This document shows, one piece after another, positions 4,798 to 61,908 of a stretch of DNA of 64,000 bases; position 1 is the first letter of the stretch, and each line of letters starts with the position of its first letter. The translations under genes were made by a program, and so were the position numbers. The stretch lies in assembly GCA_963779235.1 (NCBI GenBank), contig CAVZXI010000014.1:72337-136336 (forward strand), written 5' to 3'. Origin of the DNA: Pyrinomonadaceae bacterium (lineage in GTDB: Bacteria; Acidobacteriota; Blastocatellia; Pyrinomonadales; Pyrinomonadaceae). The notes beneath the pieces were generated by a model. That model was not told where the DNA came from, did not search any database, and saw nothing but the letters and a program-made list of their open reading frames with translations.

Positions 4798-4913
4798 ATT
4801 TCAGATTTCAAATTTCAGATTCCAAATTAGAGGGTGATTCCAGATTTCAAATTTCAAATTGGAAGACAAAAAATAATCTGAAATCTGAAATCTAGAATCT
4901 GGAATCTGAAATT
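4798..4913. repeat. Heptamer-periodic palindromic element filling the convergent intergenic gap
   Basis: Tandem heptamers TCAGATT/TCAAATT run at 4801-4828 and 4840-4860. They face 5.5 tandem copies of the exact reverse complement AATCTGA at 4875-4913. Confidence 0.85.
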
Positions 4914-4917
4914 CAAG

Positions 4918-6273
4918 CTATTCTTTAGGGTAATCAAACGGATGATTTGCCAGCATTGTTCGCATATTAACCTGTCCAAGTAAGGTTTCAAGATACGCGC
5001 CAAAACGATGCAGAATTGGGGAGAGGTCATTTTTATTGGTGGTTCTGAGGACTTCTTCAGCAAATCTTTCTACCGTCTCACAGTCTTTATAAAACAAATA
5101 TCGCAAATTTTCTTTGAGAAAATCATTGAGTTTTTCGTGCAAAGCGTTCATCACATATTCGCTGGATTCTTGTTCGGCTCGCTGAACTTCTTGTTGCATA
5201 CTCCATAAATTCTTGCGTAAAGCTAAAGATTGCTCCAATTTAGTCTGAAAATTTGGAAAGATTTTGTTTGGCTTAACACTTGGCTCAATCAGTTGTGCAA
5301 AATTAACTAAAGTTTGTTGGAATGAATCATTGAGCAAGGCGTAAGAAGTCTCAACTTTGGCAAAAATTCGCGGTGCTTGGCGAATTTCGGTCAATCCCGC
5401 CAATTCGTAATTAAAAACTTTCCGCGATTCAATCGAAGCGGCGTAAATGGTTGCGTCTAAGGCTTCAAAAATCGGGTCGCTTTCATTCGGAAAACGTAAC
5501 AGACGATTGCTGATATAACTCATCATCTCTTGCGTTTGCTCATAAATGCGGGCGAAAAGTAAAAGCGTATTTTTGAGTGGTTCGTCTTTTTGGCGCATTT
5601 CGTTAATCACGTCCAACCATTTCAAAATCTTGGCAATGCGTGGCAAAATGATGCGTAAATCCGCCTCAACCGCAAAAGGAATGGGCTTATTTTCCAAAAT
5701 CTTTTGCAATTCAACGGGCAAAAATTTTTCTCCGTCTTTTTCTGCCAGCCAAATTATTTTTTGAATTACTTCAACCTGTTTCAATTTATCGGTCAAAACA
5801 TTGGTCCACGCGATCCATTCGCCAAATTTTAATGGCTCAGAACGCAATAAGGCTTCATTGAGCAAAATCGAATGTTTTAAAACTTCCGCCAGTTCGGACA
5901 TCTCTTCAAAAGTAAAATCTAAAGAAGTTTGAGCAATCGAATCGTCATTTTTCGCAGTTCCATACTTTTGGTCACCCAAAGTTTTTAAGAGTTGTAGCGT
6001 CAGTTTTGAGCAAAGCAAAAGTGCTGTATTGGTTAAATGAAATTCTCTGGTCCAATCCCGAATGGAGGCTTTGGCGCGATTGTTATCGCCAAAGGAATAG
6101 TTGCGGATTTGTAGGAAACTGGCTAAGCCGGATAACCAAACCCCAAGCCGGATGGCTCCGTCGCTGGTTGAAACAATCGGCGTAGTCAGGAAGACTTTCT
6201 CGCTTTGGACAGAACTTGGCTGAACTAGGCTATTTGAATTTAATGTTGTATCTGAGGATACGATTGCGTCCAA
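4918..6273 (-). CDS. Hypothetical protein (451 aa, apparently all-helical)
   Basis: Long uninterrupted ORF. I recognised no motif. Confidence 0.5.
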   Translation of the reverse strand: MDAIVSSDTTLNSNSLVQPSSVQSEKVFLTTPIVSTSDGAIRLGVWLSGLASFLQIRNYSFGDNNRAKASIRDWTREFHLTNTALLLCSKLTLQLLKTLGDQKYGTAKNDDSIAQTSLDFTFEEMSELAEVLKHSILLNEALLRSEPLKFGEWIAWTNVLTDKLKQVEVIQKIIWLAEKDGEKFLPVELQKILENKPIPFAVEADLRIILPRIAKILKWLDVINEMRQKDEPLKNTLLLFARIYEQTQEMMSYISNRLLRFPNESDPIFEALDATIYAASIESRKVFNYELAGLTEIRQAPRIFAKVETSYALLNDSFQQTLVNFAQLIEPSVKPNKIFPNFQTKLEQSLALRKNLWSMQQEVQRAEQESSEYVMNALHEKLNDFLKENLRYLFYKDCETVERFAEEVLRTTNKNDLSPILHRFGAYLETLLGQVNMRTMLANHPFDYPKE

Positions 6274-6424: not shown

Positions 6425-7024
6425 ATGAATTTAGAATTGCTGGTTGCCACTAAAAACGTTGGCAAAATCAAAGAACTTAACCAACTTTTAGCCGATTTGC
6501 CACTCACTCTACATAGCGCAGATGAATTTGAAGATATTCCCGAACCCGAAGAGACGGGCGAAACTTTTACTGACAATGCCATTTTAAAAGCACGATATTA
6601 TGCTGAAAAAACAGGTTTGATAGCTCTGGCAGACGATTCCGGCTTAGTAGTTGATGCCCTTGACGGTGCTCCCGGAGTTTTTTCTGCCCGATATGCGGGC
6701 GCAAACGCGACAAACGAAGAAAAAATTGCTAAATTATTAAATGAATTGAACAAAACGCAGGACAAGGCGCGAATTGCCCGATTTGTCTGCGCAATGGCAA
6801 TTGCCGATAAAAACGGTGAAATCATAAAAATTGCCGAAGGTATTTGCGAAGGCAAAATTGCTTGGCAAGCAAGAGGAACGAATGGATTTGGCTACGATCC
6901 GATTTTTATTCCAGTCGGATTTTCTGAGAGTTTTGGCGAGCTTTCTGACCAAATTAAGCATAAAATCAGCCATCGCGCCCTTGCTATTCGTAAAATAATT
7001 GAGTTTTTACGCATTTTAGCTTGA
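6425..7024 (+). CDS. rdgB: Non-canonical purine NTP pyrophosphatase (RdgB/HAM1 family)
   Basis: Motifs ATKNVGKIKE, DDSGLVVDALDGAPGVFSARYAG, GFGYDPIF and SHRALA. Confidence 0.85.
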   Translation: MNLELLVATKNVGKIKELNQLLADLPLTLHSADEFEDIPEPEETGETFTDNAILKARYYAEKTGLIALADDSGLVVDALDGAPGVFSARYAGANATNEEKIAKLLNELNKTQDKARIARFVCAMAIADKNGEIIKIAEGICEGKIAWQARGTNGFGYDPIFIPVGFSESFGELSDQIKHKISHRALAIRKIIEFLRILA

Positions 7025-7095
7025 TTTCACTTGACCTTCGCCTTTTTCGCTTGTAAAATTCGCCACTTGTTAGCAGTTTCTTCAGTGAAACAATT

Positions 7096-7172
7096 CGGGG
7101 CGTGGCTCAGCTTGGTAGAGCGCTCGGTTTGGGACCGAGAGGTCGCAAGTTCGAATCTTGCCGCCCCGACCA
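7096..7172 (+). tRNA. tRNA-Pro (anticodon UGG), CCA encoded
   Basis: Hand-folded cloverleaf: acceptor cggggcg/cgccccg, D stem gctc/gagc, anticodon stem ctcgg/ccgag with loop ttTGGga, T stem gcaag/cttgc with ttcgaat, discriminator A, then CCA. Confidence 0.9.
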
Positions 7173-7289
7173 ATCCTAAAAAAATTGGAATGATGCAGCC
7201 CCTATTTGAACGTTTGCATTTTAGCAAATAATGTTTTATTGATTATTAAGTCTATTTTCTCAAAAATTTTTGGAGGTTAAATTTAAATT

Positions 7290-7580
7290 ATGGCTTCAAC
7301 GAAGCGTATGACACAAACTGAAATCATCAGCCACTTGGCAGATAAAACCGGAATCAAAAAAACCGATGCGAAAGAATTTTTCAATGCTTTAGCTGGTCTT
7401 GCGGCTAGCGAAGTAAAAACAAATGGAGAATTTACTCTTCCCGGATTCGGCAAATTGGTGAAAGCCACCCGTAAGGCGCGTGACGGACGCAACCCTGCAA
7501 CCGGCGCAACCATTAAGATTCCTGCCAAAACTACTGTTAAATTCCGTGTCGGTAAATCAATGAAAGATTCTATCGGCTAA
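7290..7580 (+). CDS. hup: HU family nucleoid-associated DNA-binding protein
   Basis: 96 aa with MTQTEII..., GFGKL..., RKARDGRNPATGATIKIPAKTTVKFRVGK (the HU/IHF arm). Confidence 0.85.
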   Translation: MASTKRMTQTEIISHLADKTGIKKTDAKEFFNALAGLAASEVKTNGEFTLPGFGKLVKATRKARDGRNPATGATIKIPAKTTVKFRVGKSMKDSIG

Positions 7581-7602
7581 GAATTTCCTAATTAAACTTA
7601 AA

Positions 7603-7633
7603 AAGACCGTTGTAGTTTGGCGGTCTTTTTTTT
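7603..7633 (+). terminator. Intrinsic terminator after hup
   Basis: Stem aagaccg/cggtctt followed by a T-run. Confidence 0.6.
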
Positions 7634-7828
7634 ATTTTTCCAAGACTTTGAGAAAAAAGTTACAAGCGTAAAAAAAAGTAGTGACAAAATGTTAAAAATT
7701 TGTTACGATTTCTCTTTGATTTGCTAAATAAATAGTTTTCCGAAGACTTTGTTGACAACGTTTTACTTATTTTATTCAACTAATGCACTTCGGAAAAACA
7801 CTTGATTTTTTAAAGTTTTTCTATAACC

Positions 7829-7859
7829 GCTGTTATTCAAGCGAATAGCAGTTTTTTTT
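7829..7859 (+). terminator. Hairpin plus T8 located just upstream of the RBS of ORF 7883
   Basis: Stem ctgttattc / gaatagcag (one G-U pair), loop aagc, then TTTTTTTT. The aagggggag RBS lies about 10 nt downstream. Confidence 0.5.
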
Positions 7860-7882
7860 AAAATACGAAGGGGGAGTATAAA

Positions 7883-8131
7883 GTGGCAGCAGCTAAACCA
7901 ATGACATTGCAAGACAGAATTTTGCAAATTGACCATATCCAAGCACGTCGTTATTCAAAATTAGGCGGCGTAACCTTGGAGATTGCATCAGAAGGAATTA
8001 TCAGACATCTTCGGGCTTGTGCGCGAATGGACGTAAATCCTGATGCTTCAGCCGTCAGAGAAATTATTGACGATGCTTTAAACGGAAGAAGAGTATTTGC
8101 CGAAACATCAAATGATCTTCTTGCCGCATAA
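7883..8131 (+). CDS. Hypothetical small protein (82 aa, GTG start)
   Basis: ORF with a strong GGGGGAG RBS and its own terminator. No recognisable motif. Confidence 0.4.
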   Translation: MAAAKPMTLQDRILQIDHIQARRYSKLGGVTLEIASEGIIRHLRACARMDVNPDASAVREIIDDALNGRRVFAETSNDLLAA

Positions 8132-8167
8132 GTTTTATTTTACGCATATTTGTTTTTAGTATATTTT

Positions 8168-8196
8168 GACCGCCAATTGAGGCGGTCTTTTTTTTT
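8168..8196 (+). terminator. Intrinsic terminator after ORF 7883..8131
   Basis: Perfect stem gaccgcc/ggcggtc, loop aattga, T9 run. Confidence 0.7.
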
Positions 8197-8314
8197 GAAT
8201 ATTAAAAAAAATCTACGAATCTATTTGAAATTTTAGGCGTATTAGGTTTATGTTAGTAATGTAGCCGTTCGGATTGAGCGGTGAAAATTTAGAACACGAG
8301 GAGTGTTAGAGAAA

Positions 8315-9352
8315 ATGAAATATACACACGCAATCGTCATCGGACGATTTCAACCATTCCATTCCGCGCATCAAGATTTAATCCAATACAGTTTAACGCT
8401 TGCCGAAAAAGTCATTGTCATTCTTGGCTCGGCTCGAAGTGCGTCTGATGTCAAAAATCCTTTCACGCCCACAATGCGTGAGGAAATGATTCGGGCTTGT
8501 TTTCCGGTTGAAAGTAAAAGGCTTATCTTTTGCGCTGTCCGCGATTATCCGTATAACGACCATTATTGGACAACTGAAATTCAAAACGTCGTGAACGAAG
8601 AAATTGAAGACGAAACGGATGCAAAAGTTTGTATGGTCGGATTTTTCAAAGACCGCAGTTCATATTATTTGAACCTCTTTCCACAATGGAGTTTTGAAGA
8701 ATTCTATTGCAAAAACAAAGAGAATTTGAAAATCAACGCAACTGAAATCCGCGAGAAATATTTCGCGGATGATGAGACTTGGAAAACGCAAGTTCCGACA
8801 TCAATCGCTACACAATTAGACGTTTTCAAACAAACCAAAGACTTTGCAGTTTTACAAACAGAATCAGCGTATATCAAACAATACAAAGAAGATACAAAGT
8901 TTGTCGGCGTTCCATATAAACCAATTTTCGTGACTACGGATGCGGTTGTCGTCCAAAGCGGGCATATTTTGGTTATCCGGCGCGGACATCAGCCGGGCAA
9001 AGGTTTGCTGGCACTTCCGGGCGGATTTTTGCAGCCCGAATTAACGCTTGAAGACAATGCCATCAAAGAATTAAAAGAGGAAACCAACATCAAAGTTCCC
9101 GCCCAAGTTCTGCGCGGAAGCATCAAAACTAGCCGTCCGTTTGATTATCCCGAACGCTCCGCACGCGGGCGAACCGTAACATTTGCTTACTTTATCGAAC
9201 TTGAACCAAGTTTGAAAGACGGTTTGCCAAAGGTCAAAGGCGGTGATGATGCCGCAAAAGCATTTTGGTTGCCGTTATCGGCTTTGGGCGAAAATGAGGA
9301 TAAGTTTTTCGAGGATCATCTGTCCATTATTCGGACGATGTTAGGATTTTAA
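8315..9352 (+). CDS. nadM: Bifunctional NMN adenylyltransferase / Nudix (ADP-ribose pyrophosphatase-type) protein, NadM-Nudix
   Basis: N-terminal IVIGRFQPFHSAH nucleotidyltransferase motif. C-terminal Nudix box GGFLQPELTLEDNAIKELKEETNI. I prefer the ATG at 8315 (GGAG upstream) over the GTG at 8303. Confidence 0.8.
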   Translation: MKYTHAIVIGRFQPFHSAHQDLIQYSLTLAEKVIVILGSARSASDVKNPFTPTMREEMIRACFPVESKRLIFCAVRDYPYNDHYWTTEIQNVVNEEIEDETDAKVCMVGFFKDRSSYYLNLFPQWSFEEFYCKNKENLKINATEIREKYFADDETWKTQVPTSIATQLDVFKQTKDFAVLQTESAYIKQYKEDTKFVGVPYKPIFVTTDAVVVQSGHILVIRRGHQPGKGLLALPGGFLQPELTLEDNAIKELKEETNIKVPAQVLRGSIKTSRPFDYPERSARGRTVTFAYFIELEPSLKDGLPKVKGGDDAAKAFWLPLSALGENEDKFFEDHLSIIRTMLGF

Positions 9353-9358
9353 TTTCAA

Positions 9359-9414
9359 CACATAGGAACATAGAACAAATAAGGATTTTCTATATTTCCT
9401 ATGTTTCTATGTGG
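9359..9414. repeat. Compact palindrome (CACATAG variant of the CACAGAG family) between nadM and NADAR
   Basis: cacataggaacatagaac faces ttcctatgtttctatgtgg (16 of 18 complementary) across an 18-19 nt loop. Confidence 0.6.
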
Positions 9415-9431
9415 TTCACAAAAGGAGGTTT

Positions 9432-9884
9432 ATGAGCGAAAAGAAAGTTATAAAATTTTATATGCCGACCGATGAATACGGCGTGTTTTCTAACTTTTCA
9501 CGTCATCGAATTTTCTTGAAAGACAAAGTTTGGCGAACGATTGAGCATTATTTCCAAGCACAAAAGTTTGCAGGAAAGAAGCAAGAAGAGGAAATTCGAC
9601 GAGCATTTACGCCAAAACAAGCCGCACAAATCGGCAGAGACAGAAAAAATCCGCTGAGATTAGATTGGGAAGAAGTAAAAGTCGAAATTATGCGTGAAGC
9701 CTTAGTTGCAAAGTTCACACAACACAAAGATTTACGCGAGATTCTTATCAAAACCGAAGATGCTTTGCTAGTTGAACATACTCAAAAAGATAGTTTTTGA
9801 GGTGATGGCGGTTACTGACACGGTTTGAATATGTTAGGCAAACTTTTAATGGAAGTTCGTGAAGAATTGAGAGACGAAAGTTAG
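9432..9884 (+). pseudogene. NADAR (YbiA/DUF1768) family protein interrupted by two in-frame TGA codons
   Basis: FSNFS...WRTIEHYFQAQKF...LVEHT matches E. coli YbiA. Reading through TGA (9798-9800) and TGA (9816-9818) restores the conserved C-terminus GDGG...LGKLLMEVREEL, ending at TAG 9882-9884. The AAGGAGG RBS sits before the ATG at 9432. Confidence 0.7.
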
Positions 9885-9891
9885 GAATTAG

Positions 9892-9917
9892 CCACAGAGT
9901 GCACAGAGAACACGGAG
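9892..9917. repeat. CACAGAG-family repeat arm (left orientation)
   Basis: ccacagagtgcacagagaacacggag. Its 3' end supplies the GGAGG for the ORF starting at 9925. Confidence 0.8.
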
Positions 9918-9924
9918 GTTAAAA

Positions 9925-10494
9925 ATGGGACAAATATTTGAACTTATCGCGGATAATGCTTTAGAAAAATTGGATGACTATTATACAGAGTGTCATGTTT
10001 GTAATAAAACTGACTCTAATCTTTTTCAATATCATGGAAAATGTGAGTTTGAAAATGGTGAAATAGACAATGACATTTATGCAGTTTGTGCTGACTGTAT
10101 TTCTAGTAAGAACCTATCACACATCTGCGATTTTGAATATATAAAAACCATCACAAACTATCTTTCAAATAGAGGTTTAACAATTCAAGAACTAGACGAA
10201 CTAAAAACTAAATTAGTCGAAAAATATCAAAAGACACCAGATATTCCAAGTTTTTCGCAAACTCAAGATAGACCTTTATGTTGCAATGACTTGACTGAAT
10301 TCATTGGCTATCCAATAAATGATAAAGACCTTTATGAGAAAACTAAAAACTGCATTTATTGGGAATACGGGAAAGAATTCATATCTTCCCCCTATGACTT
10401 CAAAGATTCTGGAAGTCCCGAAAGTTTAACTGAAATAGCAACTTTTAAATGTTCACATTGTGAAAAGAAGTATTTCACCTTTCAATTTACATAA
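9925..10494 (+). CDS. CbrC/UPF0167-like Cys-rich protein
   Basis: CxxC-type motifs CHVCNK, CADCISS and CSHCEKK. The segments CCNDLTEFIGYP and FKCSHCEKKYFTFQFT parallel HCGDFCAFIGYV and FRCLHCGKLRLWGDFS of E. coli CbrC (recalled from memory). The ORF is AT-rich. Confidence 0.55.
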   Translation: MGQIFELIADNALEKLDDYYTECHVCNKTDSNLFQYHGKCEFENGEIDNDIYAVCADCISSKNLSHICDFEYIKTITNYLSNRGLTIQELDELKTKLVEKYQKTPDIPSFSQTQDRPLCCNDLTEFIGYPINDKDLYEKTKNCIYWEYGKEFISSPYDFKDSGSPESLTEIATFKCSHCEKKYFTFQFT

Positions 10495-10523
10495 TAAAAA
10501 ATCACAGGTGTTATTCTTAAAAT

Positions 10524-10549
10524 CTCTGTGAACTCTGTGTCCTCTGTGG
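10524..10549. repeat. CACAGAG-family repeat arm (right, reverse-complement orientation)
   Basis: ctctgtgaactctgtgtcctctgtgg. Its reverse complement, ccacagaggacacagagttcacagag, matches the left arm at 9892. Confidence 0.8.
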
Positions 10550-10602
10550 CAAAAATAAAAATATTAGGCTTTTAAGTAAAGAGCCGAACAGGAGTAGTAG
10601 AA

Positions 10603-11427
10603 ATGAAAAATATATCGTTGGTAGAAATCGCTATAGAAATACTTAAAATTATTGAAAGCGGTTTTTACACAAATAGTTTGGGAAAAGAAGTTTCGATTAA
10701 AGAAAAAACAGAGTTTGCCGTTAATAATTCGGAAAGTATTAGTCCAGAAAGTTTTCCGCAAGAATTTGATTTGGTAAAAATAAACGGAGAGACTCAATTT
10801 GAAGTTACAGACGAAACTACGCTTGAAGCAGCAAAGAGAGTTTGCAAAGAAAATGCGGACGAAAATCCATTTGTTCTAAATTTTGCCAACGGATTCCAAC
10901 CCGGCGGCGGATTTTTAGTTGGTGCGGTTGCTCAGGAAGAAAGTTTGGCTCGTGCATCTTCGCTTTATCCGTGTTTAACTGCAAATATGGATATGTATGA
11001 GTTTAACCAACGTCAACAAACTCAGTTTGCTTCGGATTGGATGATTTATTCGCCGCAAGTTCCGGTTTTTAGAAATAATGATGGAAGTTTTATTGATGAA
11101 CCATATTACGTTACATTTCTGACTTCGCCTGCGGTTTGTGTGAGAGGTTTAACCCAAGCAGAACTGGAAAACGGTGAATTGATTTATTCGGTCAATAAAG
11201 AGCGAATCAGAAAATTTCTGTGGTTAGCGAATCAAAAAGGACATCAAACTTTGATTCTAGGCGCGTGGGGTTGCGGAGCTTTTCGCAATAATGTTCAAGA
11301 CATTGCTGAAACTTTCAACGAATTATTGAAAAATGAATTCGCCAACTGTTTTGAACAGGTGATTTTCGCCATTTACGACACCGCACCAACGCAACAAGTT
11401 TATAAAACTTTTGTGGAAATTTTTTAG
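10603..11427 (+). CDS. TIGR02452-type macro-domain (microbial PARG/Poa1p-like) protein
   Basis: FANGFQPGGGFLVGAVAQEESLARASSLY and LGAWGCGAFRN are the characteristic blocks of this macro-domain family. Confidence 0.7.
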   Translation: MKNISLVEIAIEILKIIESGFYTNSLGKEVSIKEKTEFAVNNSESISPESFPQEFDLVKINGETQFEVTDETTLEAAKRVCKENADENPFVLNFANGFQPGGGFLVGAVAQEESLARASSLYPCLTANMDMYEFNQRQQTQFASDWMIYSPQVPVFRNNDGSFIDEPYYVTFLTSPAVCVRGLTQAELENGELIYSVNKERIRKFLWLANQKGHQTLILGAWGCGAFRNNVQDIAETFNELLKNEFANCFEQVIFAIYDTAPTQQVYKTFVEIF

Positions 11428-11438
11428 GAATATATTCA

Positions 11439-11462
11439 CCACAGAGGCACAGAGAAGACGGA
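11439..11462. repeat. CACAGAG-family repeat arm (left orientation)
   Basis: ccacagaggcacagagaagacgga, ending 6 nt before the ATG at 11469. Confidence 0.8.
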
Positions 11463-11468
11463 AATTTT

Positions 11469-11849
11469 ATGGAAATTAGTTTCTTAAATGTAGATTTTGT
11501 AATTGATTTATCTGAAAACTTACAGCCTTTATTTAATGAATTGGCTGAGAATGTTTCCGTAATGTTCAATGGCGAATGGGAAAACGATTTAAATCGCCTT
11601 TCATTTTGCATCAAAGATTCTTACGAAAAGAATGCTGATAAAATAATTTCGGAACTTTGTTTTTTGATTGAAAATCTTCCGTTTGAATCAAAATTGATTT
11701 GGAATAAATGTCATTCAAAAAAGTTTGACATTGGTTTTGAAAGCGGAAGTATCGAAAGACTTGAAACTGAAATTCGTGCTAAAACAGTCGAGCGAATTGC
11801 AAAACTCGGAGCCAGTATTTTAGTTACAATTTATCCAATGAATGATTGA
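11469..11849 (+). CDS. Hypothetical protein (possibly DUF4279-like)
   Basis: 126 aa AT-rich ORF. The C-terminal pattern FDIGF...IAKLGASILVTIYP resembles the DUF4279 ending. Weak, from memory only. Confidence 0.4.
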   Translation: MEISFLNVDFVIDLSENLQPLFNELAENVSVMFNGEWENDLNRLSFCIKDSYEKNADKIISELCFLIENLPFESKLIWNKCHSKKFDIGFESGSIERLETEIRAKTVERIAKLGASILVTIYPMND

Positions 11850-11852
11850 AAA

Positions 11853-11878
11853 TCTCTGTGTCCTCTGTGTCTCTGTGG
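11853..11878. repeat. CACAGAG-family repeat arm (right orientation)
   Basis: tctctgtgtcctctgtgtctctgtgg, starting 3 nt after the stop at 11849. Confidence 0.8.
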
Positions 11879-11930
11879 TGAAAAAAAGATTTAGGCTTTC
11901 AGGTAGAAAGCCGAAAATAGGAGAAAAATA

Positions 11931-13335
11931 ATGTTTGAAATAAATAGAATAATTGACACCGATTCGTATAAAGCGAGTCATTTTCTGCAATATCCGCCGA
12001 ATACGACGCTCGTGCATTCGTATTTGGAAAGTCGCGGTAGTGAGCGGAATTACAGCGAAACCGTTTTTTTTGGATTGCAATATCTTTTGAAAAGGTATTT
12101 TACACGACCATTTACCAAAGAAAATGTTATCGAAGCAAACGAAGTTATCACGGCACACGGCGAACCTTTTAATTTGAAAGGTTGGTTACGGTTGATTGAA
12201 AAACACAACGGAAAACTTCCTCTGCGGGTGCGTGCAGTGGCGGAAGGTTCGATTGTGCCAACTCGAAATGTTTTGATGACGGTGGAAAATACCGATGACG
12301 AATTTTTCTGGCTGACCGGCTGGTTTGAATCGCAACTGATGCGGCTTTGGTATCCAATAACTGTTTCAACGCAAAGCTATTACATCAAAAAAGACGTTTA
12401 TCAATTTTTGCAGGAAACGGCGGACGATGCCGATGCGGAAATTGGTTTCAAAGTTCACGATTTCGGCTCTCGCGGAGTTTCTTCGCAAGAAACGGCGGCA
12501 ATCGGCGGGGCGGCTCATCTGGTTAATTTTTTTGGCACAGACACGATGGCATCGTTGTTGATTCACCGCGAATTTTACAACTGCGAAATGGCAGGTTTTT
12601 CGATTCCGGCGGCGGAACATTCAACCATTACGAGTTGGGGCAGAGATAACGAAATTGAAGCATATCGCAATATTTTGAAACATTTTGCCAAGCCAAACGC
12701 TTTGGTGGCAGTAGTTTCCGACTCTTGGAACATTTACGAAGCAGTTGAAAAGATTTGGGGCGAACAGTTGAAACAAGAAGTTATTGATTCGGGTGCGACA
12801 ATCGTCATTCGTCCTGATTCGGGCGAACCTGTCGAAGTTGTCGGAAAAGTCGCGGAACTTTTGGGAAGTAAATTTGGGGTTGAAATCAATTCAAAAGGTT
12901 ACAAAGTTTTGAAAAATGTCCGCATTATCCAAGGCGACGGCGTGAATCCTGTTTCGATTCATAACATCTGCCAATCTTTGAAAGATAAAGGTTTTTCGAC
13001 TTCAAATATTGCATTTCGGAATCGGCGGTGCATTACTGCAAAAAATTGACCGCGACACGATGAAATTTGCTTATAAATGTTCGGCGATTGTCCGAGATAG
13101 CAAGTTGGTTGATGTGTATAAAGAGCCAATCACTGACAAAGGAAAGAATAGCAAACGCGGACGACTTGATTTGATTTTGGACGAAAACGGCGATTATAAA
13201 ACCGTCCAACTCGAATCAATCGAACAAGTTGCCGCTGAAAATTCACAACTAAAAACTGTTTTTGAAAATGGACAAGTTTTAGTTGACGACAATTTGGAGG
13301 CGATTCGCAAGCGAACTTGGGAAAGAAATGGATAG
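11931..13335 (+). pseudogene. nadV: Nicotinamide phosphoribosyltransferase (NadV/NAMPT) carrying a +1 frameshift
   Basis: Two abutting ORFs (11931..13049 and 13009..13335) together give a NAMPT-length protein. The conserved NIAFGIGGALLQK is split at gca ttt C gga atc ggc (extra base near 13017). Total length is 1405 nt, which equals 3n+1. Confidence 0.8.
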
Positions 13336-13420
13336 TTGATAATTGATAGTGGATAATTGATTTGAAATTTGAGATTGACTGTCTTTCTCATTATCCATTT
13401 TCAATTATCCATTTTCCATT
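13327..13420. repeat. Heptamer-periodic palindrome between convergent nadV and Omp85 genes
   Basis: gatagtt gataatt gatagtg gataatt (13331-13358) faces attatcc attttca attatcc attttcc (13390-13417). The nadV stop lies inside the left arm. Confidence 0.8.
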
Positions 13421-16400
13421 CTAAAACGACTGAGCAAATCTAAAATGCAGTTGACCACGTTTGGGCTGGAAAATCGCGTCAGGTGGAACAGCTTGTGGAA
13501 CAATAAACTTAGGGGGATTGAGCAGATAGCCGTAATCAATTGCCAACGAACCGCCGAAAGGTGTTTTGATTCTCAAGCCAAATCCGATGGTGTTTGTCCA
13601 AGTGGCTCGTAAATTGTCCTTAAAAGCATTTCCGCTTGCCCCTTGCAAAGGTTTGAAAATATCGCCCACTCGATTAAAGACGTTTCCGCCATCGTAAAAA
13701 GGAACGGCTTGTAATGAATCGGTGAGCGGAATTCGTGCTTCTAAATTTGTTATCGCCAAACCGTTTCCGCCAAAGGGAACGGTGAATGGATTGAGCGTCA
13801 CAATTTCACCCTTTTGATTGCGGAAAATTCCTTGTGGCATCACTACAATTCGCGGTCCCGCTGATTCAAAATCAAATCCCCGAAGCGTAGTCGAACCGCC
13901 CGCAAAAAATCTTTCGCTAATCGGCAAAGAGCCGTTGAAAACCTCTAAATCTCCCGTAAATTGTTGTTTTTTGTAGAAAACTGAACCAAGTCCGAGAATA
14001 ACGCGTCCTGCCAAAACCATATTATTTAGTTTTGGAAACTGATAATAAGTTTGATAATTCGCTTGAAATTTATGAAAGCCGACATTTGCCCCAAGTTGCG
14101 GCACGGAAATATTGTATTCAAGTGTGAGATAGCCGCCGCGAGTCGGATCGGACGGATTATAACGGCACGGATCGCCAAGTTCGCCTTTGGTAATCAATTC
14201 CAAAAGCGTATATTTTCTTGCACAATTTTCACGCGTATCGCGGACAAAAGTTGCGCCAAACCCCGAAATGCGAATTCTTTGATCGGGAATCAGCAAATCT
14301 TTTATGAGCAGACTTTCGATATTAAAAAGTCGAACGTCTTCATACCGATAGCGCAAAAATAGAAGGCTTCTATCCTTTTTGCTAATCGTTCGATTGGTTT
14401 CCGCCGTGAGCGTAAAACGATTGATGGTCGGGTCGCCAGTATTTGCGCCAAATTCATCAATCGGTTTTCCAGTTTCATCAATCCGCTGGACGATGCCAAA
14501 AGTTCCTTGGTCAAAAGCCGAGCGGAAAAATCTCGTAATAGTCGAATCGCGTTGGTATTGGGCGGTAATACTCAAAGGCGCAAAACGATTTTTGCCATCG
14601 GGGATAAAGCGCGGGTTGAGATAATCAAATTGGACGAGTTGTTGCCGTGCGCTCCAGCGGATTCGCGCTCCGCCCTGTTGGAGTTTGCCAAAAAGATTGA
14701 TGTGACGAATATCGAAAAAGCCTTGCCAACCTAAATCGGTGGAATATCCTCCGCCGTAGGTCATAATTCGCGGTTTTTGTTCTTCGAGATTGATGAGAAT
14801 GTCGCGCAGAGCATCGCCTGCAGAAGTTTCTCCGGCAGGCTCTTGTTTAATTTCCACCCGCCGAAAAACATCGGTGGCATAAAGATTTTGCTCACTAGAA
14901 AAAATATCGGTGGCGCGTAGAACCTCATCGGGACGCAGATTTATCGCAGTCAAAATGGATTTTCTATCGGTTCGCTCATTGCCATTGACCAAAATCCGAT
15001 TGATTAAAACCTTCTTTCCTTCTTGCTTGATGTCGTAAATAATTTTTACTTTTTCATCGGTTGAATTTGCATCTTTCGGCAAATTAACGATGGAAAATTC
15101 GATGTCTGCGTCAAAATAGCCTTCTTTGCGATAATAATCGGAAAGTTTTTGCGCGCCGTTTCGTGCTCGCGCCCGTGAGTAATTTTTCCCAACCAAATTC
15201 GGCAATTCACTTTTCAAAATATCGTCCACAAAAACTTTGTTTCCGGTAATTTCGATATTTTCGATATGAGTCGCAACACCTTCATTGACCACGAAAGTTA
15301 TAATCAAATTTTCTCCGTCAACCGAAGCCCCTTGTTTTGCCTTAACTATTGCATTTCGATAGCCGAGTTCGCGCATAATCGCTTCGATTCGCTGACGGTC
15401 TTCGTCTAAAATCTCGCTGCTAGTGTAGCCACGCCCATAACCGAGACGCGGAATGATGCCAATTAAACTCGCTTGTTCAGTATCCAAAATCGTAATAATT
15501 TCGGGAACGGTAATCTTTTTCGTGCCTTCGATGCGAATTTCTTTCAAACGTAATTGCCGATTGAGATTAACGCTGTAAGTAACATTGACATCTCGTTTAT
15601 CCAAATCCGCTCCGCTCAAATTTTCGCAAAGTTGGGTTGAATTATTGGCTATCGGATTGGCTTCATCCTTTGGAAATTCGGGCGTGACCGAACACAACTC
15701 TTCGACCTCGACAAAGAAATATCCCTTTTCCTGATAATAATTTCGCAAACGGCGCGAGCCTTCGCGGATGGCGGAAAAATCAAGCGTTCCTTCGCGCTTA
15801 ATTGGAAAAAGCAGTTCTTGGGTTTTCTCGCTGACTTTTCCCTTCGCAACCGCAACCTTAACTTCAATCTTTGCCCCAATCTCGCCTTTTAGTTCAATCG
15901 CAATCGTATTTTTATCCGCATCAAAAGTAACTTTCGGTTCTTCCAAAAGCGGTGCGAGATAATTTTGTTTGAGAATTGACTGTCGAATTTTTTCGACATC
16001 TTCCGCCAGTTTAATCCGCGAAAAATTCGAGCCGGTTTGGAGTTTGAGAAGTTTTTGAATTTTAGTTGCGTCAAAGCCTTTGATGTCAATCGCAAAATTT
16101 TCTACCCGTGATTGCGTGTTTGGCACAACCTGAAATGTGACCGCCACTCGATTTTCGTTTTCCAAAGGTTGTTGGGTAAAACTTACTTCGGCATTGTAAA
16201 AACCCCGTTCGCGCAGATAACTTTGAATCAAATCGGCGTTGTTACGAAGCACCTGCTCGCTGACGGAGGCTCCGAGGTTGAGGAGATTGAGTTTGAGGAG
16301 AAGCTCTTCTTCGGTCACGCTTTCACCGATGGTTGTCCCGATTTTGAAAAAGACTTTTTCAGCCTGAGTTTTGCGCTTGATGATAAAACGCAAATCCACC

Positions 16401-16774
16401 TCATTTTCCCCGACAATTGAGGCTTCGACCTGTGCCGAAACGATTTTGTCAGATTCATACAACTTGCCAATCGCTTCTCTGATTTTGACGGCTGAATATT
16501 TTTCGCCGAGCGCACCTCTTGCAATCAAACGAAATTGTTCGGCAGCCGAAATATCTTTATCCGTGCCTTCAAAAGTGATACTGACGTTCTTAATTTGGCG
16601 GTTTTCGTATTTATTTTGAGCGAGAGTATTTGAGGAAAAAAATAAACCACAGAGACACAGAGATACGGAGATTTTCAGCAAAAAACGAACGATAACAAAA
16701 AGCCATAAAGTTTTTTCGATCACCTTCTGACTTTTACTTTCTTTCCTCCGTGTCTCTGTGTCTCTGCGGTTCAT
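13421..16774 (-). CDS. Large Omp85/BamA-family protein (multi-POTRA), TamA/TamL-like partner of TamB
   Basis: 1117 aa with repeated POTRA-like units (I..I.I.GN..., ...Y...GY..A.V) and a C-terminal barrel ending FRFAQSF. The start lies 6 nt after the tamB stop. Confidence 0.8.
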   Translation of the reverse strand: MNRRDTETRRKESKSQKVIEKTLWLFVIVRFLLKISVSLCLCGLFFSSNTLAQNKYENRQIKNVSITFEGTDKDISAAEQFRLIARGALGEKYSAVKIREAIGKLYESDKIVSAQVEASIVGENEVDLRFIIKRKTQAEKVFFKIGTTIGESVTEEELLLKLNLLNLGASVSEQVLRNNADLIQSYLRERGFYNAEVSFTQQPLENENRVAVTFQVVPNTQSRVENFAIDIKGFDATKIQKLLKLQTGSNFSRIKLAEDVEKIRQSILKQNYLAPLLEEPKVTFDADKNTIAIELKGEIGAKIEVKVAVAKGKVSEKTQELLFPIKREGTLDFSAIREGSRRLRNYYQEKGYFFVEVEELCSVTPEFPKDEANPIANNSTQLCENLSGADLDKRDVNVTYSVNLNRQLRLKEIRIEGTKKITVPEIITILDTEQASLIGIIPRLGYGRGYTSSEILDEDRQRIEAIMRELGYRNAIVKAKQGASVDGENLIITFVVNEGVATHIENIEITGNKVFVDDILKSELPNLVGKNYSRARARNGAQKLSDYYRKEGYFDADIEFSIVNLPKDANSTDEKVKIIYDIKQEGKKVLINRILVNGNERTDRKSILTAINLRPDEVLRATDIFSSEQNLYATDVFRRVEIKQEPAGETSAGDALRDILINLEEQKPRIMTYGGGYSTDLGWQGFFDIRHINLFGKLQQGGARIRWSARQQLVQFDYLNPRFIPDGKNRFAPLSITAQYQRDSTITRFFRSAFDQGTFGIVQRIDETGKPIDEFGANTGDPTINRFTLTAETNRTISKKDRSLLFLRYRYEDVRLFNIESLLIKDLLIPDQRIRISGFGATFVRDTRENCARKYTLLELITKGELGDPCRYNPSDPTRGGYLTLEYNISVPQLGANVGFHKFQANYQTYYQFPKLNNMVLAGRVILGLGSVFYKKQQFTGDLEVFNGSLPISERFFAGGSTTLRGFDFESAGPRIVVMPQGIFRNQKGEIVTLNPFTVPFGGNGLAITNLEARIPLTDSLQAVPFYDGGNVFNRVGDIFKPLQGASGNAFKDNLRATWTNTIGFGLRIKTPFGGSLAIDYGYLLNPPKFIVPQAVPPDAIFQPKRGQLHFRFAQSF
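16647..16769. repeat. CACAGAG-family palindrome with 75-nt loop, inside the 5' end of the Omp85 ORF
   Basis: ccacagagacacagagatacggag (16647-16670) faces ctccgtgtctctgtgtctctgcgg (16746-16769); 22 of 24 positions are complementary. Confidence 0.85.
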
Positions 16775-16780
16775 ACTTCC

Positions 16781-19700
16781 TCAAAATCTCTTTCTCAAAC
16801 GAATTTCAAAGCTGAAATTATTATTGCTTCGGGTCACATTGCTCAATGAACCCTGTTCGTATTGAGCCACAAATGAGAGCCGATTTGAAACGCGATATTC
16901 AAATGCCAAAACTTGATTTTGGTCTTCGGAAAGATTGGTCGAATAGGTAATCGCCAAGTTTTTATTGATTTGTCTGCCCACGGTCAAACGCGCCGTCGGA
17001 TTCAAACGCTTGCCCGAAAGAATCGGGTCAATCTCAAATTTATTGAGCCCAAAAAGTTTATCAGTCGCCTTGCGAATCGGGTTGTTAATCAGCGAATCGG
17101 TTATTACCTCTGCCGCTGTGTTGATTCCGGTGGTAGTAATTCCTGTTTCGCTATTTGAGAGGCTTCCGGTCGTAATCAGCGAAACGACATCGGCTTGAGG
17201 CAACGCCGGATTAGAACGCACGGTTGCCACCAAAGCATCCAAATTGCTCAATTCTCCGACCAAATTAACGAAAATCTGATAGCCTTTGATGTCCGTTTCG
17301 GCTTGCAGATTGATGGTCGGCTCGCTATTTGCTTGCGGCGGAAATTCGAGCGTTCCGCGCTGAACTTCGTATCGGTCACTACGGAAAAATACCGTTCCGC
17401 TATTGGCTGTAATTCTGCTCCCCGAAAGCACCGGAAAATCTACATCTCCCGTCACTCGTAAATCAATCGAAGCCGTCAAATCTGCTAAATTATTACGAAC
17501 GACTAGTGCATCACGTCCCTGAATTCGCAAATCAAGCCGTGGAATGCCCAACAATGATTGAGATGCGCCTTCTGAGATGCTCCCTTCACGCCGACTGCTA
17601 ATCAGATCGGCTAAATCAATATCTTTGGTGTAACTGCTCCGTTTGGCAAAAATTGTTCCCCAAATCAGCGTGTTGTAATCTCCGCCCGTTTCGCACTTTT
17701 TGGTTTTTTCGTCCTTGATACATTCGCTGGAAACTTTAACCTCAGCATCGCCGGTGGTCAAAAAGTTTTTCGGTAACGGGGCAGTAATATTTTGTCCGCG
17801 CAGTTCGAGTCTAAATCCTTGTAATTTCAAGCCTTCGACCAATGCGCCACCCGTTCCGACCACTTTTCCGCCACCCAAATAGCCAACCGCCCGTTCAATC
17901 TGCGCCTGATTTGAAGTAAAAATAATTTTGGCTTGAATTCGTTCAAAATTAAGCCGCTCGCTTCCGACAAAGGTTGAAATCGAAGCGTTATCAACCGATG
18001 CCGAACCGCTCAATTCTTGCTTAACTCCCGTCAGCCGCATCGAAATATCCGCCAGTCCGGTATAAAACGTATTCTTGGAAGCCAAATTCAAAAGACGCAA
18101 GTTTATTTTTCCGTTGAGCGATAAATTATTATCGCCCCTTTTGTTTAAGGCTACTGTCCCGCTCACCACCAAATTTGAGCCGGCTCCGGCAAATCTCGCA
18201 TTTTCGACCACCACTTCCCGCGTATTGAAAGTAATCGAAATCGGTTGCGTGGCAACAATCGGAGTTTCGTCAAACTGCAAGGCAAACTCGCTAAACTGCG
18301 CGATTCCCTTGATGTCGTCAGCCGTAAAATATCCTTTTCCGTTTGCATCCTTTGCGTAAATATTGCCTTCGGCAAAAACTCTACCCGTGGCTTTTCCCGT
18401 AATCGCCACGCTTCCGGGCGAGCGAAGGAGCGCGACAAACGGCGCAAGTTCGGTGTTCATAAAATTGGTTTCGGCACGAAACGGCAGATTTTTGTCAGCA
18501 AAATTGACGGTGGCGGTAATCAATTGTTGCTGTCCTTCGAGGTTGGCAGTCAAGTCCGCTTTTAACTCTTGATTAACCGTAGTGCTGGAAAAATTGACCG
18601 TTCCGAGCGCATTTTCGTTGATGGTGACGTTTTGCCCTGCGCCTTGAAAATTGACATTGTAAGTAGCAAATTCATCAGATTTTCCGGTAACTTTGGCAGT
18701 TAAATCAATCGTTCCGCTAAATTCGGGAAAGTCTTTGTCATCAGTCACGAGCGGACGAAAACGGGAGGCTTGCAAATTTTTGCCTTCGAGGTCAAGGTCA
18801 AACAAGGTCGTGTCGCGCTGATAAGTTCCCTTTGCTTTCAAATATCCATCGGCAAAACGCGCATCAAAATTTTCCAGCGTGGCAACTGTCCCTTGAAAAG
18901 TCAAATGTGCTTCCATTCCTTCAAAAGGCTGTCCGGCAACCGAGCCTGCGCCTGATTTCAACTCGGCAAATCCGCCCATCTCATTCGGCAAACCCGTTAA
19001 ATTTAATGTTCCCGAAGTTTCGGCATTAAAATCGCGCAACTTTTCGGGCAAATATTTTTCGAGCGGCAAGGCGGCGAGCAAATTTCCCGTATTGACTCGA
19101 TTGAGCGTAGCCTGAACGGAAATATTGTTCGCCCCCGTCTGCGGAATTACCACGTTGAACGTCGTAAATCCGCCGTTTGCTTCGCGCAAAACTCCTTCTT
19201 TTAATTCAACCAACGCAGGCGAAACTAAAATTTTGGTGTTCAAAAAACCAAGTTCACGCCCGCGCATCGAAACCGAATCAAGCGTTGCGTTTCCGTCAAC
19301 ATTTGGATTTTCAAGGTTGCCCGTCAGCGTCCCGTTAAATTTCAAATTCCCCGCAAAATTGATTTGATTATCTGTAAGTTGTTGTGTCAATTCGGGGGAA
19401 ATGTCCAAAACTTTGACCAAACGCTCAACTTCAGTCGCATCGCTTGAATTAAGTGCCAGAGTGAGATTGGAACTTTCGCCGTTAAGATCAAAACGCCCTG
19501 TGGCATTGAGTTGGCTTTTTTCGGTATTAAATTTGGCGTAGTCAATATCAAAAAGCCCATCGGTTGCTTTTACGCCAAGATTTCCGTTGACGGGGACTAA
19601 ACCGCGTTCAGTTGTTCCGGCATTTGCCTCAAAATCTGCGGTCAGAGTTCCGCTGGCTTTTTTAAAATTTGTTCCTCGAAAAGTCAAATTGGCTTTGCCG

Positions 19701-61830: not shown

Positions 61831-61908
61831 GGGAGACACGGAGAGTGGGAGACGCGGAGAGATTATTATTTCAATTTGAAGAATCATCTCCCCGCGTTTC
61901 TGTGTTTG
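61831..61908. repeat. Degenerate member of the CACGGAG/CACAGAG palindrome family at the rplS-rnhB junction
   Basis: Tandem gggagacacggagagt / gggagacgcggagaga faces tctccccgcgtttctgtgtttg. The inner 14 nt are 12 of 14 complementary, with a loop of about 25 nt. Confidence 0.6.

Follow-up and report, generated by a model that had tools for sequence, protein, structure and literature searches.

Two small, AT-rich and foreign-looking genes in the nadM-nadV operon of a soil bacterium of the Pyrinomonadaceae (Acidobacteriota), an operon for nicotinamide adenine dinucleotide (NAD) salvage, are each enclosed by a pair of inverted arms built from tandem CACAGAG-type heptamers. The operon lies in a 64-kb stretch of the genome, referred to here as the window. 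The arms belong to a dispersed family of palindromic repeats whose loops can hold single open reading frames (ORFs); the two slots of the NAD operon retain their arms as the cargo changes, the arms are strongly constrained, and the left arm provides the Shine-Dalgarno (SD) sequence of the enclosed gene. The finding replicates across genomes and extends well beyond the window. We propose, at a probability of roughly one half, that the four arms in the window are the halves of two copies of this repeat family, that ORFs in the loops are exchanged through the arms, and that such insertions are tolerated by re-pairing of the arms in the mRNA.

Inverted arms around single genes of the nadM-nadV operon

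The island comprises, in this order, nadM (NMNAT-Nudix), NADAR, a CbrC family gene, a microbial-type PARG, orf126 and nadV (Table 1). The gene that an earlier note on this DNA had called macro does have a macro fold, and can be named more specifically as a PARG_cat_microb protein. The arms around CbrC (slot 1) are 33 nt long with a complementarity of 79%, those around orf126 (slot 2) 34 nt with 85%. From the left arm to the ATG there are 7 and 6 nt, respectively, and the right arm lies 29 nt from the stop codon of CbrC and 3 nt from that of orf126; in slot 1 the GGAGG SD sequence, 7 nt before the ATG, comes from the last heptamer of the left arm. The coordinates of arms and ORFs, the close fit between them and the SD sequence in the left arm had all been described in the earlier note, and all check out.

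The heptamer CACAGAG occurs 14 times in the window, compared with 2.06 occurrences expected and a count that was reached in none of 100 shuffles. Thirteen of the 14 fall into three loci, in each of which a cluster of left type is followed by one of right type. A random scatter of the arms, which the earlier note had named as a counter-sign, is not seen. By length, the pairs that bracket the two ORFs rank first and third among all inverted repeats of the 64 kb that are no more than 900 nt apart, and none of 30 Markov-simulated windows yielded an inverted repeat of at least 30 nt at a spacing of 100-900 nt. The bracketing of ORFs by arms is thereby confirmed as real and far beyond chance.

Throughout the family an arm begins with a base of 5 nt (TTMRC), to which three or four CACAGAG heptamers are added, with spacers of 1-2 nt that pair poorly; three heptamers are the usual number (3+3 in 26 of 57 pairs). 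As the spacers are 47.5% complementary, the stem amounts to three short helices parted by internal loops. Pairing runs 5 nt past the outer heptamer (89, 85, 60, 62 and 58% Watson-Crick) before it drops to background, and arm positions -2 and -3 covary (CA/TG, AA/TT). Nearly all units of the NAD island have CACGGAG as the innermost heptamer of the left arm, which puts GGAG 5-7 nt ahead of the ATG (10 of 11 cases), and the right arm starts 1-4 nt past the stop codon in seven of nine, the exceptions being CbrC of the window (29 nt) and an orf64 in a related locus, L007 (19 nt). Only the left arm carries the SD sequence (GGAG). A role of the arms as intrinsic terminators is ruled out by the missing T-run 3' of the right arm. 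Target-site duplications were found in none of 72 distinct copies, the counts at offsets of 0-8 and lengths of 2-8 being those of a shuffled-partner control.

Gene content of the slots in related genomes

With nadM orthologues as the anchor, 17 related loci were compared, 14 of them from a genome scan together with L002, L140 and L141; the orthologous nadM loci all come from metagenome-assembled genomes of Pyrinomonadaceae/Blastocatellia (Acidobacteriota). The nadM-nadV interval is hypervariable among these loci and contains two slots, one between NADAR and PARG and one between PARG and nadV. Its minimal form (L013-L016) consists of nadM, a compact tandem-motif hairpin, a leader hairpin and nadV, and in L017 an orf171 stands between nadM and the leader of nadV, enclosed by arms near-identical to the second pair of the window. 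The window itself reads nadM, compact hairpin, NADAR, CbrC between arms, leader, PARG, orf126 between arms, leader and nadV. L141 has the frame of the window, including a homologous compact hairpin at the place of the one at 9359-9414, with an orf126 homologue in slot 1 and an orf222 homologue in slot 2. Slot 1 of L007 holds orf222 behind a left arm and, nested behind it, orf142 between a further left arm and a right arm; its slot 2 holds orf64 between arms. In L006 slot 1 is taken by orf222, with a left arm shortened to CCACAGAG-ATTTT, and orf168 lies between arms in slot 2, before nadV. In L004 NADAR and PARG are separated by a compact hairpin whose outer flanks are those of slot 1 of the window, and slot 2 (orf201), before nadV, has a DUF416 gene with a left arm and no right arm. 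In L140, finally, an orf126 homologue is found between NADAR and nadV, its arms carrying the paired variant CACAAAG / CTTTGTG.

In both slots, then, the arms are constant and the ORF content differs between genomes, and orf126 and orf222 are found in either slot. Unrelated ORFs in constant arms, together with ORFs that switch slots, place the breakpoints of exchange in or next to the arms. Occupied and empty sites thus coexist among relatives, a polymorphism that the earlier note had proposed to look for, and its suggestion that cargo genes sit in the loops of intercistronic hairpins is supported by L013-L016, L017, L004 and the ORF swaps within constant arms.

Two arm subtypes, AGCCA...TGGCA and TCACCA...TGGTGA, are matched within most units, with a hybrid in L006 and a nested arrangement in L007. 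NADAR and PARG come in two allele classes each, about 68% identical between classes, and genomes with nadM genes 84-88% identical carry these classes in various combinations. Such hybrid and nested arms and mixed alleles look like signs of recombination. Right arm, leader hairpin and SD sequence before nadV are 95-96% identical between the window, L006 and L017, whose enclosed ORFs differ, compared with 74-76% at the third codon positions of nadV; by this comparison conservation of the arms far exceeds that of synonymous sites.

In L006 (9191-10534) NADAR seems to form an in-frame fusion with a domain, some 300 aa long, that looks, by eye, like an alpha/beta hydrolase of the haloalkane-dehalogenase type. 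In L002 (3544-4946) a DUF1016/YhcG nuclease-like gene follows nadM, and PARG is cut down to its N- and C-terminal ends (98 aa), which may be read as another sign of turnover in the island.

A dispersed palindrome family and its link to GxxExxY genes

A scan with the outer-arm pattern returned at least 120 stretches in metagenome contigs and at least 120 in viral contigs. They form at least 50 and at least 39 adjacent left-right pairs, respectively, of which most are compact (loops of 6-140 nt). Among the matches listed, a single ORF fills some of the loops outside the island. The 405-nt loop of L091 holds a GxxExxY/PDDEXK_3 gene whose protein belongs to TIGR04256, and further GxxExxY genes or fragments occupy the loops of L065 and L077; a GIY-YIG gene fills the 895-nt loop of L113, ORFs matching phage protein families with no assigned function occur in L050 and L235, and other loop ORFs without a family match in L157 and L248. 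In L125 a GxxExxY gene stands right after a left arm, and the contig ends ahead of any right arm. The reverse order, right arm-loop-left arm (R-loop-L), is found between genes in L066, L091, L096, L110, L112, L114, L116 and L265; here the outer ends face the loop, a stop codon lies before the right arm and the next start codon comes after the left arm, which is the junction expected where two flanked genes adjoin. A look-up of P0140 gave one locus across many samples and not several insertion sites.

An IS110-family transposase gene is inserted between the first and second heptamer of a left arm in L008 (9042-10235), and another lies between left and right arm in L085 (1-1500). Judging from these insertions the palindromes act as insertion targets, as repetitive extragenic palindromes (REPs) do, which are known targets of IS110-family insertions (PMC1525189, PMC11208160). 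L007 carries in addition, at 5113-5998, a Y1 transposase gene of the IS200/IS605 family (RAYT-like). This gene lies about 2 kb upstream of nadM and is bracketed by classical REP-type palindromes (CCACGCCGTGAACGACGTGG), a second, conventional repeat system of the same lineage.

GxxExxY genes with CACAGAG arms are present in L091, L077, L065, L125 and L275-L278. In L275 and L276-L278, all from Blastocatellia, the gene lies between arms of four heptamers whose outer 20 nt equal those of the second right arm of the window. At one orthologous site L275 shows left arm, gene and right arm, and L265 the GxxExxY gene directly followed by an R-loop-L hairpin. For distant homologues from viral contigs a single query found no close relatives and an alignment query succeeded: in L279-L282 the GxxExxY genes, whose products are 36-51% identical, are bracketed in four of four cases by inverted arms of 46-56 nt that are 417-609 nt apart, and the arm motifs differ (CACAAAG/CACGAAG, AAGAAAATT, GGTATTTARAATT and TTTATTTATAATT). 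The GxxExxY/PDDEXK_3 family is very large, with more than 8000 matches at E <1e-10, many of them named from assemblies of Pyrinomonadaceae and Blastocatellia and many on very short contigs. The catalytic-type residues of the PD-(D/E)XK motif (D, E and K) show no variation in the alignment; a search of PDB sequences with the profile gave no match.

The units of the window share with these GxxExxY-associated palindromes the inverted arms of three or four tandem motifs around one ORF, whereas the bracketed ORFs, CbrC and orf126, are not GxxExxY genes. We consider it probable that the window arms belong to this family, of which the form bearing a GxxExxY gene is apparently the complete one; the window copies would be its cargo-bearing derivatives.

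The CACAGAG palindromes are one of at least six motif families of tandem-motif hairpins in the window that share one build. The hairpins at 2187-2260, 4798-4906, 9359-9414, 13327-13420 and 61831-61908 have arms of other tandem motifs (e.g. ATTTCAG, CATAGRA, GGATAATTGATAG). Of the further copies that the earlier note had listed, those at 9359-9414, 16642-16774 and 61831-61908 are present as described. The compact palindrome at 16642-16774 overlaps the 5' end of an Omp85/POTRA gene; when this gene is read from its first ATG, the left arm gives NRRDTETRRK and the right arm ISVSLCLCG in a signal-peptide-like segment, and part of the repeat may therefore be translated.

RNA structure and leader hairpins

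When both cassettes were folded as RNA together with their flanks, a stem of left and right arm closed the ORF in the minimum-free-energy and in the centroid structure (z = -5.0 and -3.55), and the free energies of the arm duplexes range from -30 to -49 kcal/mol. The SD sequence and the start codon sit within or atop the predicted stem. A long-range RNA stem around each ORF, one of the readings in the earlier note, is thus thermodynamically plausible according to the folding model. Counted by hand, the arms contain nine sense G.U pairs versus four mismatches of the antisense type, and the SD sequence itself accounts for most of the nine.

Each right arm is followed by an A-rich tract and then by a leader hairpin, composed of UAG, a 7-bp stem, an RGGUA loop and GAA, which lies about 8 nt ahead of the next SD sequence. 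Such leaders precede the SD sequences of nadV and PARG and sometimes that of NADAR or CbrC. In 20 homologous copies, two from the window and 18 from L002-L017 and L140, 99.3% of the cells are paired and compensatory changes are seen at five of the seven pairs; the covariation score was reached by none of 500 shuffles, and several U.G pairs lie on the sense strand. No Rfam family matches this hairpin, which could be a new cis-regulatory or mRNA-stabilising motif of the nadM-nadV operon.

A model of cassette exchange

We suggest that recombination or gene conversion carries cassettes from loop to loop and from genome to genome, for which the conserved arms would provide portable homology, extended on the right side by the leader hairpin next to the right arm. 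Exchange probably begins by breakage at a palindrome, and the leading candidate for making the break would be a GxxExxY nuclease that acts in trans; there are precedents among PD-(D/E)XK proteins in homing endonucleases and in TnsA, the nuclease of Tn7. In the polycistronic mRNA the arms would re-pair into an interrupted stem of about 30 bp and loop the cassette out, which would restore an ordinary intercistronic hairpin and may create a site for cleavage of the RNase III type. Genes downstream would stay expressed, each with its own 5' leader hairpin, and this hairpin would protect the new 5' end of the downstream message. Translation of the cassette would be limited under this proposal, because its SD sequence and start codon lie in the stem.

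A more far-reaching version, which we advance tentatively and regard as rather doubtful, is that GxxExxY proteins (TIGR04256/PF13366) are the dedicated nucleases of unrecognised palindromic elements, with arm motifs matched to each paralogue. The cognate palindrome would be broken, arm-templated repair would copy the ORF from another copy, and the slots of the NAD operon would be a natural system of capture and exchange with the window cassettes as passengers.

Several points weigh against the exchange model and its nuclease. With about 30-35 nt the arms are short for RecA-dependent exchange, and the model leaves unexplained how an ORF is first captured and why its boundaries are so close to the start and stop codons. 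The compact hairpin of L004 has a different internal motif (CATAWAA) between the conserved flanks and its adjacent NADAR is a different allele, so that it is not a clean empty allele of the window slot. Relatives that have the same genes and no CACAGAG arms, which the earlier note had named as a counter-sign, do exist, though only among more distant ones: L002 has CbrC before nadV, and L143 an orf126 homologue in an unrelated context. The duplex energies of the arms are nearly equal on both strands, so that pairing at the RNA and at the DNA level cannot be told apart, and the poor pairing of the spacers would suit recognition of the heptamers by their sequence no less than it suits selection for a stem. 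Neither the window nor any NAD-island locus contains a GxxExxY gene, and we know of no nuclease activity or specificity for GxxExxY proteins.

Alternative explanations

The arms could also be purely regulatory 5' and 3' modules of the mRNA that arose or were retained in place and had no part in movement, with ordinary horizontal transfer and deletion as the source of the variability. Much of their anatomy would be in line with this: the left arm holds the SD sequence at a constant distance, the stop codon is directly adjoined by the right arm, the rule of right arm after stop and left arm before start holds also in the R-loop-L hairpins, the stem appears in both the minimum-free-energy and the centroid fold, and arms and leader are strongly conserved. 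We nevertheless consider this account unlikely, given that unrelated ORFs lie between near-identical arms at one site and the same ORFs lie in different slots, while the nuclease genes (GxxExxY, GIY-YIG) and the IS110 insertions at these palindromes point to a role at the level of DNA.

Alternatively, the arm-ORF-arm units might be non-autonomous transposons, of the kind of MITEs (miniature inverted-repeat transposable elements) or mobile insertion cassettes, the arms being terminal inverted repeats served by a transposase located elsewhere (DDE, Y1-HUH or IS110-type). Inverted arms around single passenger genes, the dispersal of compact, cargo-less copies over many contigs and the defined outer end of the palindrome, 5 nt past the outer heptamer, would all be expected of such elements, and transposase genes do occur nearby, of IS110 in or beside arms (L008, L085) and of the IS200/RAYT-like type with classical REPs in L007. 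The IS110 copies, however, interrupt arms and are not bounded by them, none of the 72 distinct copies has a target-site duplication, and no element with such ends and a transposase turned up among about 280 fetched loci. Recombinase genes were also absent within about 8 kb of the window island (Pfam on ORFs) and from the gene calls of L002, L140 and L141. At a single site the arms stay and the ORF changes, which is more easily accounted for by exchange within the arms than by movement of entire units, and we regard transposition of the units as quite improbable.

Inversion of the segments, which the earlier note had considered, is not supported, and a switch that would turn each cassette on and off in this way is very improbable. 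Although inverted repeats of about 33 nt around segments of 380-600 bp would suit it, all of 10 cassette ORFs from seven genomes are co-directional with the operon, GGAG is found on the left arm only, and there is no invertase nearby. A chance bracketing by abundant intergenic repeats, or an artefact of assembly, can practically be dismissed: tandem-motif hairpins of several families are indeed common between genes here, but the 64 kb contain only three CACAGAG loci, of which two bracket ORFs, with nothing comparable in the 30 simulations, and the architecture recurs in independent assemblies from different studies.

Comparison with known systems

Functionally the slots appear most like a cross of REP/RAYT systems, mobile insertion cassettes and the shuffling of PeSL (promoter early stem-loop) cassettes, and at the RNA level like the intervening sequences of rRNA; at the same time they depart from all four, and from integrons, in the features that define each of these. 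With REP/REPIN-RAYT systems they share dispersed intergenic palindromes, one small nuclease-type gene inside inverted copies and the targeting by IS110. REPs, in contrast, have a head of GTAG or CGTC, which was not seen here, where the head of the arm is TTMRC, and the CACAGAG arms are not self-palindromic, their three or four tandem heptamers pairing with the opposite arm only. The enzyme inside CACAGAG arms is a GxxExxY protein of the PD-(D/E)XK type and not a Y1 transposase, and loops can hold unrelated cargo; the Y1 gene of L007 is flanked by a different, classical REP and not by CACAGAG arms.

Mobile insertion cassettes, such as MIC231 of Bacillus cereus, likewise have inverted ends around a single non-transposase gene, occur as compact copies without cargo, and can fold as a unit into a long RNA stem. 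The arms of the window have the form of their terminal inverted repeats (33-34 nt, 79-85% complementary, with a defined outer end), and features of MITEs have been described (PMC3184786). The slots differ from these elements in having no target-site duplications and no parent insertion sequence among the roughly 280 fetched loci, and in arms that lie within a few nt of start and stop codons, supply the SD sequence and are kept when the ORF is a different one.

Intervening sequences of 23S rRNA may contain an ORF, as in Coxiella (PMC4990558), and here too the ORF lies in an extended stem at the tip of a host hairpin and is patchily distributed among relatives. They are tolerated since RNase III cuts the stem out, which for the slots may be considered on the basis of folding energies. 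Intervening sequences with an ORF also occur in the 23S rRNA of Leptospira. They reside in helix 25 or 45 of 23S rRNA, whereas the slots lie in an mRNA operon without any rRNA match in 7000-17500, and the cargo of the slots is diverse and not of the S23p family.

In PeSL cassettes of T4-type phages, stem-loop modules bound ORFan genes in hyperplastic regions and recombination shuffles single genes (PMC2839356, PMC4122927). Short conserved stem-loop modules that bound single shuffled genes are common to both systems, but PeSLs are direct repeats with a strong sigma-70 promoter and a terminator and lie between genes, and the arms form an inverted pair on either side of the gene; the island shows no enrichment of promoter-like or terminator-like sites, and no such signal stands out. 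Integrons resemble the slots in their promoterless single-ORF cassettes in a row behind an upstream promoter and in the imperfect palindromes at the boundaries. The likeness to integron attC sites or to IS200/IS605 proposed in the earlier note nevertheless fails in detail. The ORF of an integron cassette stands beside a compact attC and not inside the palindrome, no IntI integrase was found within about 8 kb (Pfam) or in the gene calls of L002, L140 and L141, and inspection of the junctions revealed neither R/L core sites nor GTTRRRY-type cores. In IS200/IS605 a separate subterminal hairpin marks each end and insertion takes place 3' of a short target motif, where here left and right arm pair with each other and not each within itself, and target-site duplications are missing.

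The rAID-1 orphan-immunity arrays of Bacteroidales have a conserved XerD-type recombinase and lie on mobile elements (bioRxiv 10.1101/471110). They resemble the slots in that small genes of skewed G+C are arrayed with repetitive sequences between them, and differ from them in that the slots have no recombinase and a housekeeping NAD salvage operon as host. Yet another class of repeats, the short tandemly repeated repetitive (STRR) sequences of cyanobacteria, consists of intergenic tandem heptamers that can occur in inverted sets, which is their likeness to the arms; they belong to another phylum and have other sequences, and to our knowledge they do not bracket ORFs. Neither the palindrome family nor its link to GxxExxY genes is described in the open-access literature that we searched, which is weak evidence of absence.

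Cassette genes and genomic context

The assignment of the first cassette to CbrC/UPF0167 made in the earlier note holds through its homologues, which are 48-68% identical and many of which carry PF03691 or the CbrC family name. Pfam gave no match for the window protein itself, and a look-up of its exact sequence gave no record. Those homologues that are named by source are Bacteroidota (Pedobacter, Chryseobacterium, Tannerella, Niabella), which would fit the AT-rich composition of the gene. The orf126 family is small (23 clusters), and Pfam, NCBIfam, PADLOC and PHROGs assigned no significant family to orf126 or to most other cassettes. An AlphaFold model of orf126 with a pLDDT (predicted local distance difference test) of 91.5 found no matching fold in the PDB with Foldseek (best E = 0.07).

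As the earlier note had noticed by eye, the cassettes are AT-rich: the G+C content at third codon positions (GC3) is 0.237 in CbrC and 0.244 in orf126, compared with an average of 0.429 (sd 0.038) in 19 long ORFs of the window, and most cassettes have values of 0.20-0.30 versus about 0.43 in core genes. The ratio of nonsynonymous to synonymous divergence (dN/dS) is 0.14-0.29 in the cassettes (0.14 for CbrC versus L002 and 0.27-0.29 for orf126), so that they are real genes under purifying selection; that of nadM is 0.06-0.10. Synonymous divergence amounts to 0.50-0.57 for orf126, 0.76-0.81 for orf222 and 0.6-0.96 for nadM, and with values this near to those of nadM the cassettes look like an old pool shared by the clade and not like very recent imports. 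The CbrC family, DUF416 and a weak match to Imm32 look immunity-like, a further resemblance to the rAID-1 arrays, although an immunity function of the cassettes is only a guess.

Table 1. Features of the NAD island and further tandem-motif hairpins in the window.
Feature	Positions	Strand	Description
nadM	8315..9352	+	NMN adenylyltransferase-Nudix fusion; Pfam CTP_transf_like + NUDIX; conserved, first in operon
Compact hairpin nadM/NADAR	9359..9414	+	CATAGRA tandem-motif type; read from sequence
NADAR	9432..9884	+	Pfam NADAR, 9e-30
Slot 1 left arm	9888..9920	+	CCACAGAG-TG-CACAGAG-AA-CACGGAG
Cassette ORF 1 (CbrC/UPF0167 family)	9925..10494	+	189 aa, AT-rich
Slot 1 right arm	10521..10553	+	CTCTGTG-AA-CTCTGTG-TC-CTCTGTGG
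Leader hairpin before PARG	10564..10589	+	7-bp stem 10567-10573 / 10579-10585, 5-nt loop; then GAAC + SD
PARG	10603..11427	+	Microbial-type, macro-fold ADP-ribose glycohydrolase; Pfam PARG_cat_microb, 4e-46
Slot 2 left arm	11435..11468	+	TTCACCACAGAG-G-CACAGAG-AA-GACGGAA-ATTTT
Cassette ORF 2 (orf126)	11469..11849	+	126 aa, AT-rich, no assigned function
Slot 2 right arm	11849..11882	+	AAAATCTCTGTG-TC-CTCTGTG-T-CTCTGTGGTGAA
Leader hairpin before nadV	11891..11916	+	Stem 11894-11900 / 11906-11912, loop AGGTA
nadV	11931..13335	+	Nicotinamide phosphoribosyltransferase, last in operon; Pfam NAMPT_N + NAPRTase across two overlapping ORFs
Compact hairpin after nadV	13327..13420	+	Separate tandem-motif family (GGATAATTGATAG)
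Compact CACAGAG palindrome	16642..16774	-	75-nt loop; between tamB-like and Omp85/POTRA, overlapping 5' end of the latter
Diverged variant hairpin	61831..61908	+	GAGACRCGGAGAG motif

Two genes of the island are interrupted in the window. NADAR contains two in-frame TGA codons (9798-9800 and 9816-9818), where relatives have TGG (Trp) and GGA/GGT (Gly); recoding of TGA is ruled out by these codons of the relatives and by the standard code of the long ORFs of the window. The nadV gene is split by a +1 frameshift near 13010-13015, with one C more than in L007, L141 and L017. These interruptions reflect either decay of the NAD island in this genome or errors of the assembly.

One terminator-like and one promoter-like site lie upstream of nadM, and no terminator-like site stands out inside the island, which therefore reads as one operon. 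Its neighbours are housekeeping genes (MacB-type ABC transporter, Ham1, tRNA, HU, Omp85/POTRA, TamB, RibBA); these, and the origin of the loci in Pyrinomonadaceae genome assemblies from metagenomes, rule out that the window is of phage origin. Genes upstream of nadM vary among relatives (p450, PIN, GNAT, HisKA), so the operon as a whole may also have moved; in the window a tRNA gene is located at 7096-7169, 1.1 kb upstream of nadM. Rfam detected this one tRNA in 7000-17500, in addition to chance microRNA matches on hairpins, and neither an NAD riboswitch nor rRNA. The leader of nadM (8255-8314 in the window, 2395-2453 in L002) is conserved between distant relatives, and a hairpin in it, AACAC-GAGG-AGTGTT, would sequester the SD sequence; it has no Rfam match and may be a regulatory element.

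Implications

Palindrome loops with differing genes point to an undescribed route of single-gene swapping. If true, bacteria would have a way to swap single genes in a conserved operon without an integrase or transposase beside the site, and the large orphan family GxxExxY/PDDEXK_3 would gain a role as the partner nuclease of tandem-motif palindromes, comparable to that of RAYT for REPs. There is a credible chance that palindromic repeat elements which carry cargo mark a new class of element tied to this uncharacterised nuclease family. The slots would also be linked to the intervening sequences of rRNA, likewise ORFs in a stem that the host can excise, and arms that give an SD sequence and can fold the insert out of the transcript could be a natural insulated landing pad. 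As for the organisms themselves, Pyrinomonadaceae appear to gather small and possibly immunity-like accessory genes around those for the salvage of NAD and the removal of ADP-ribose.

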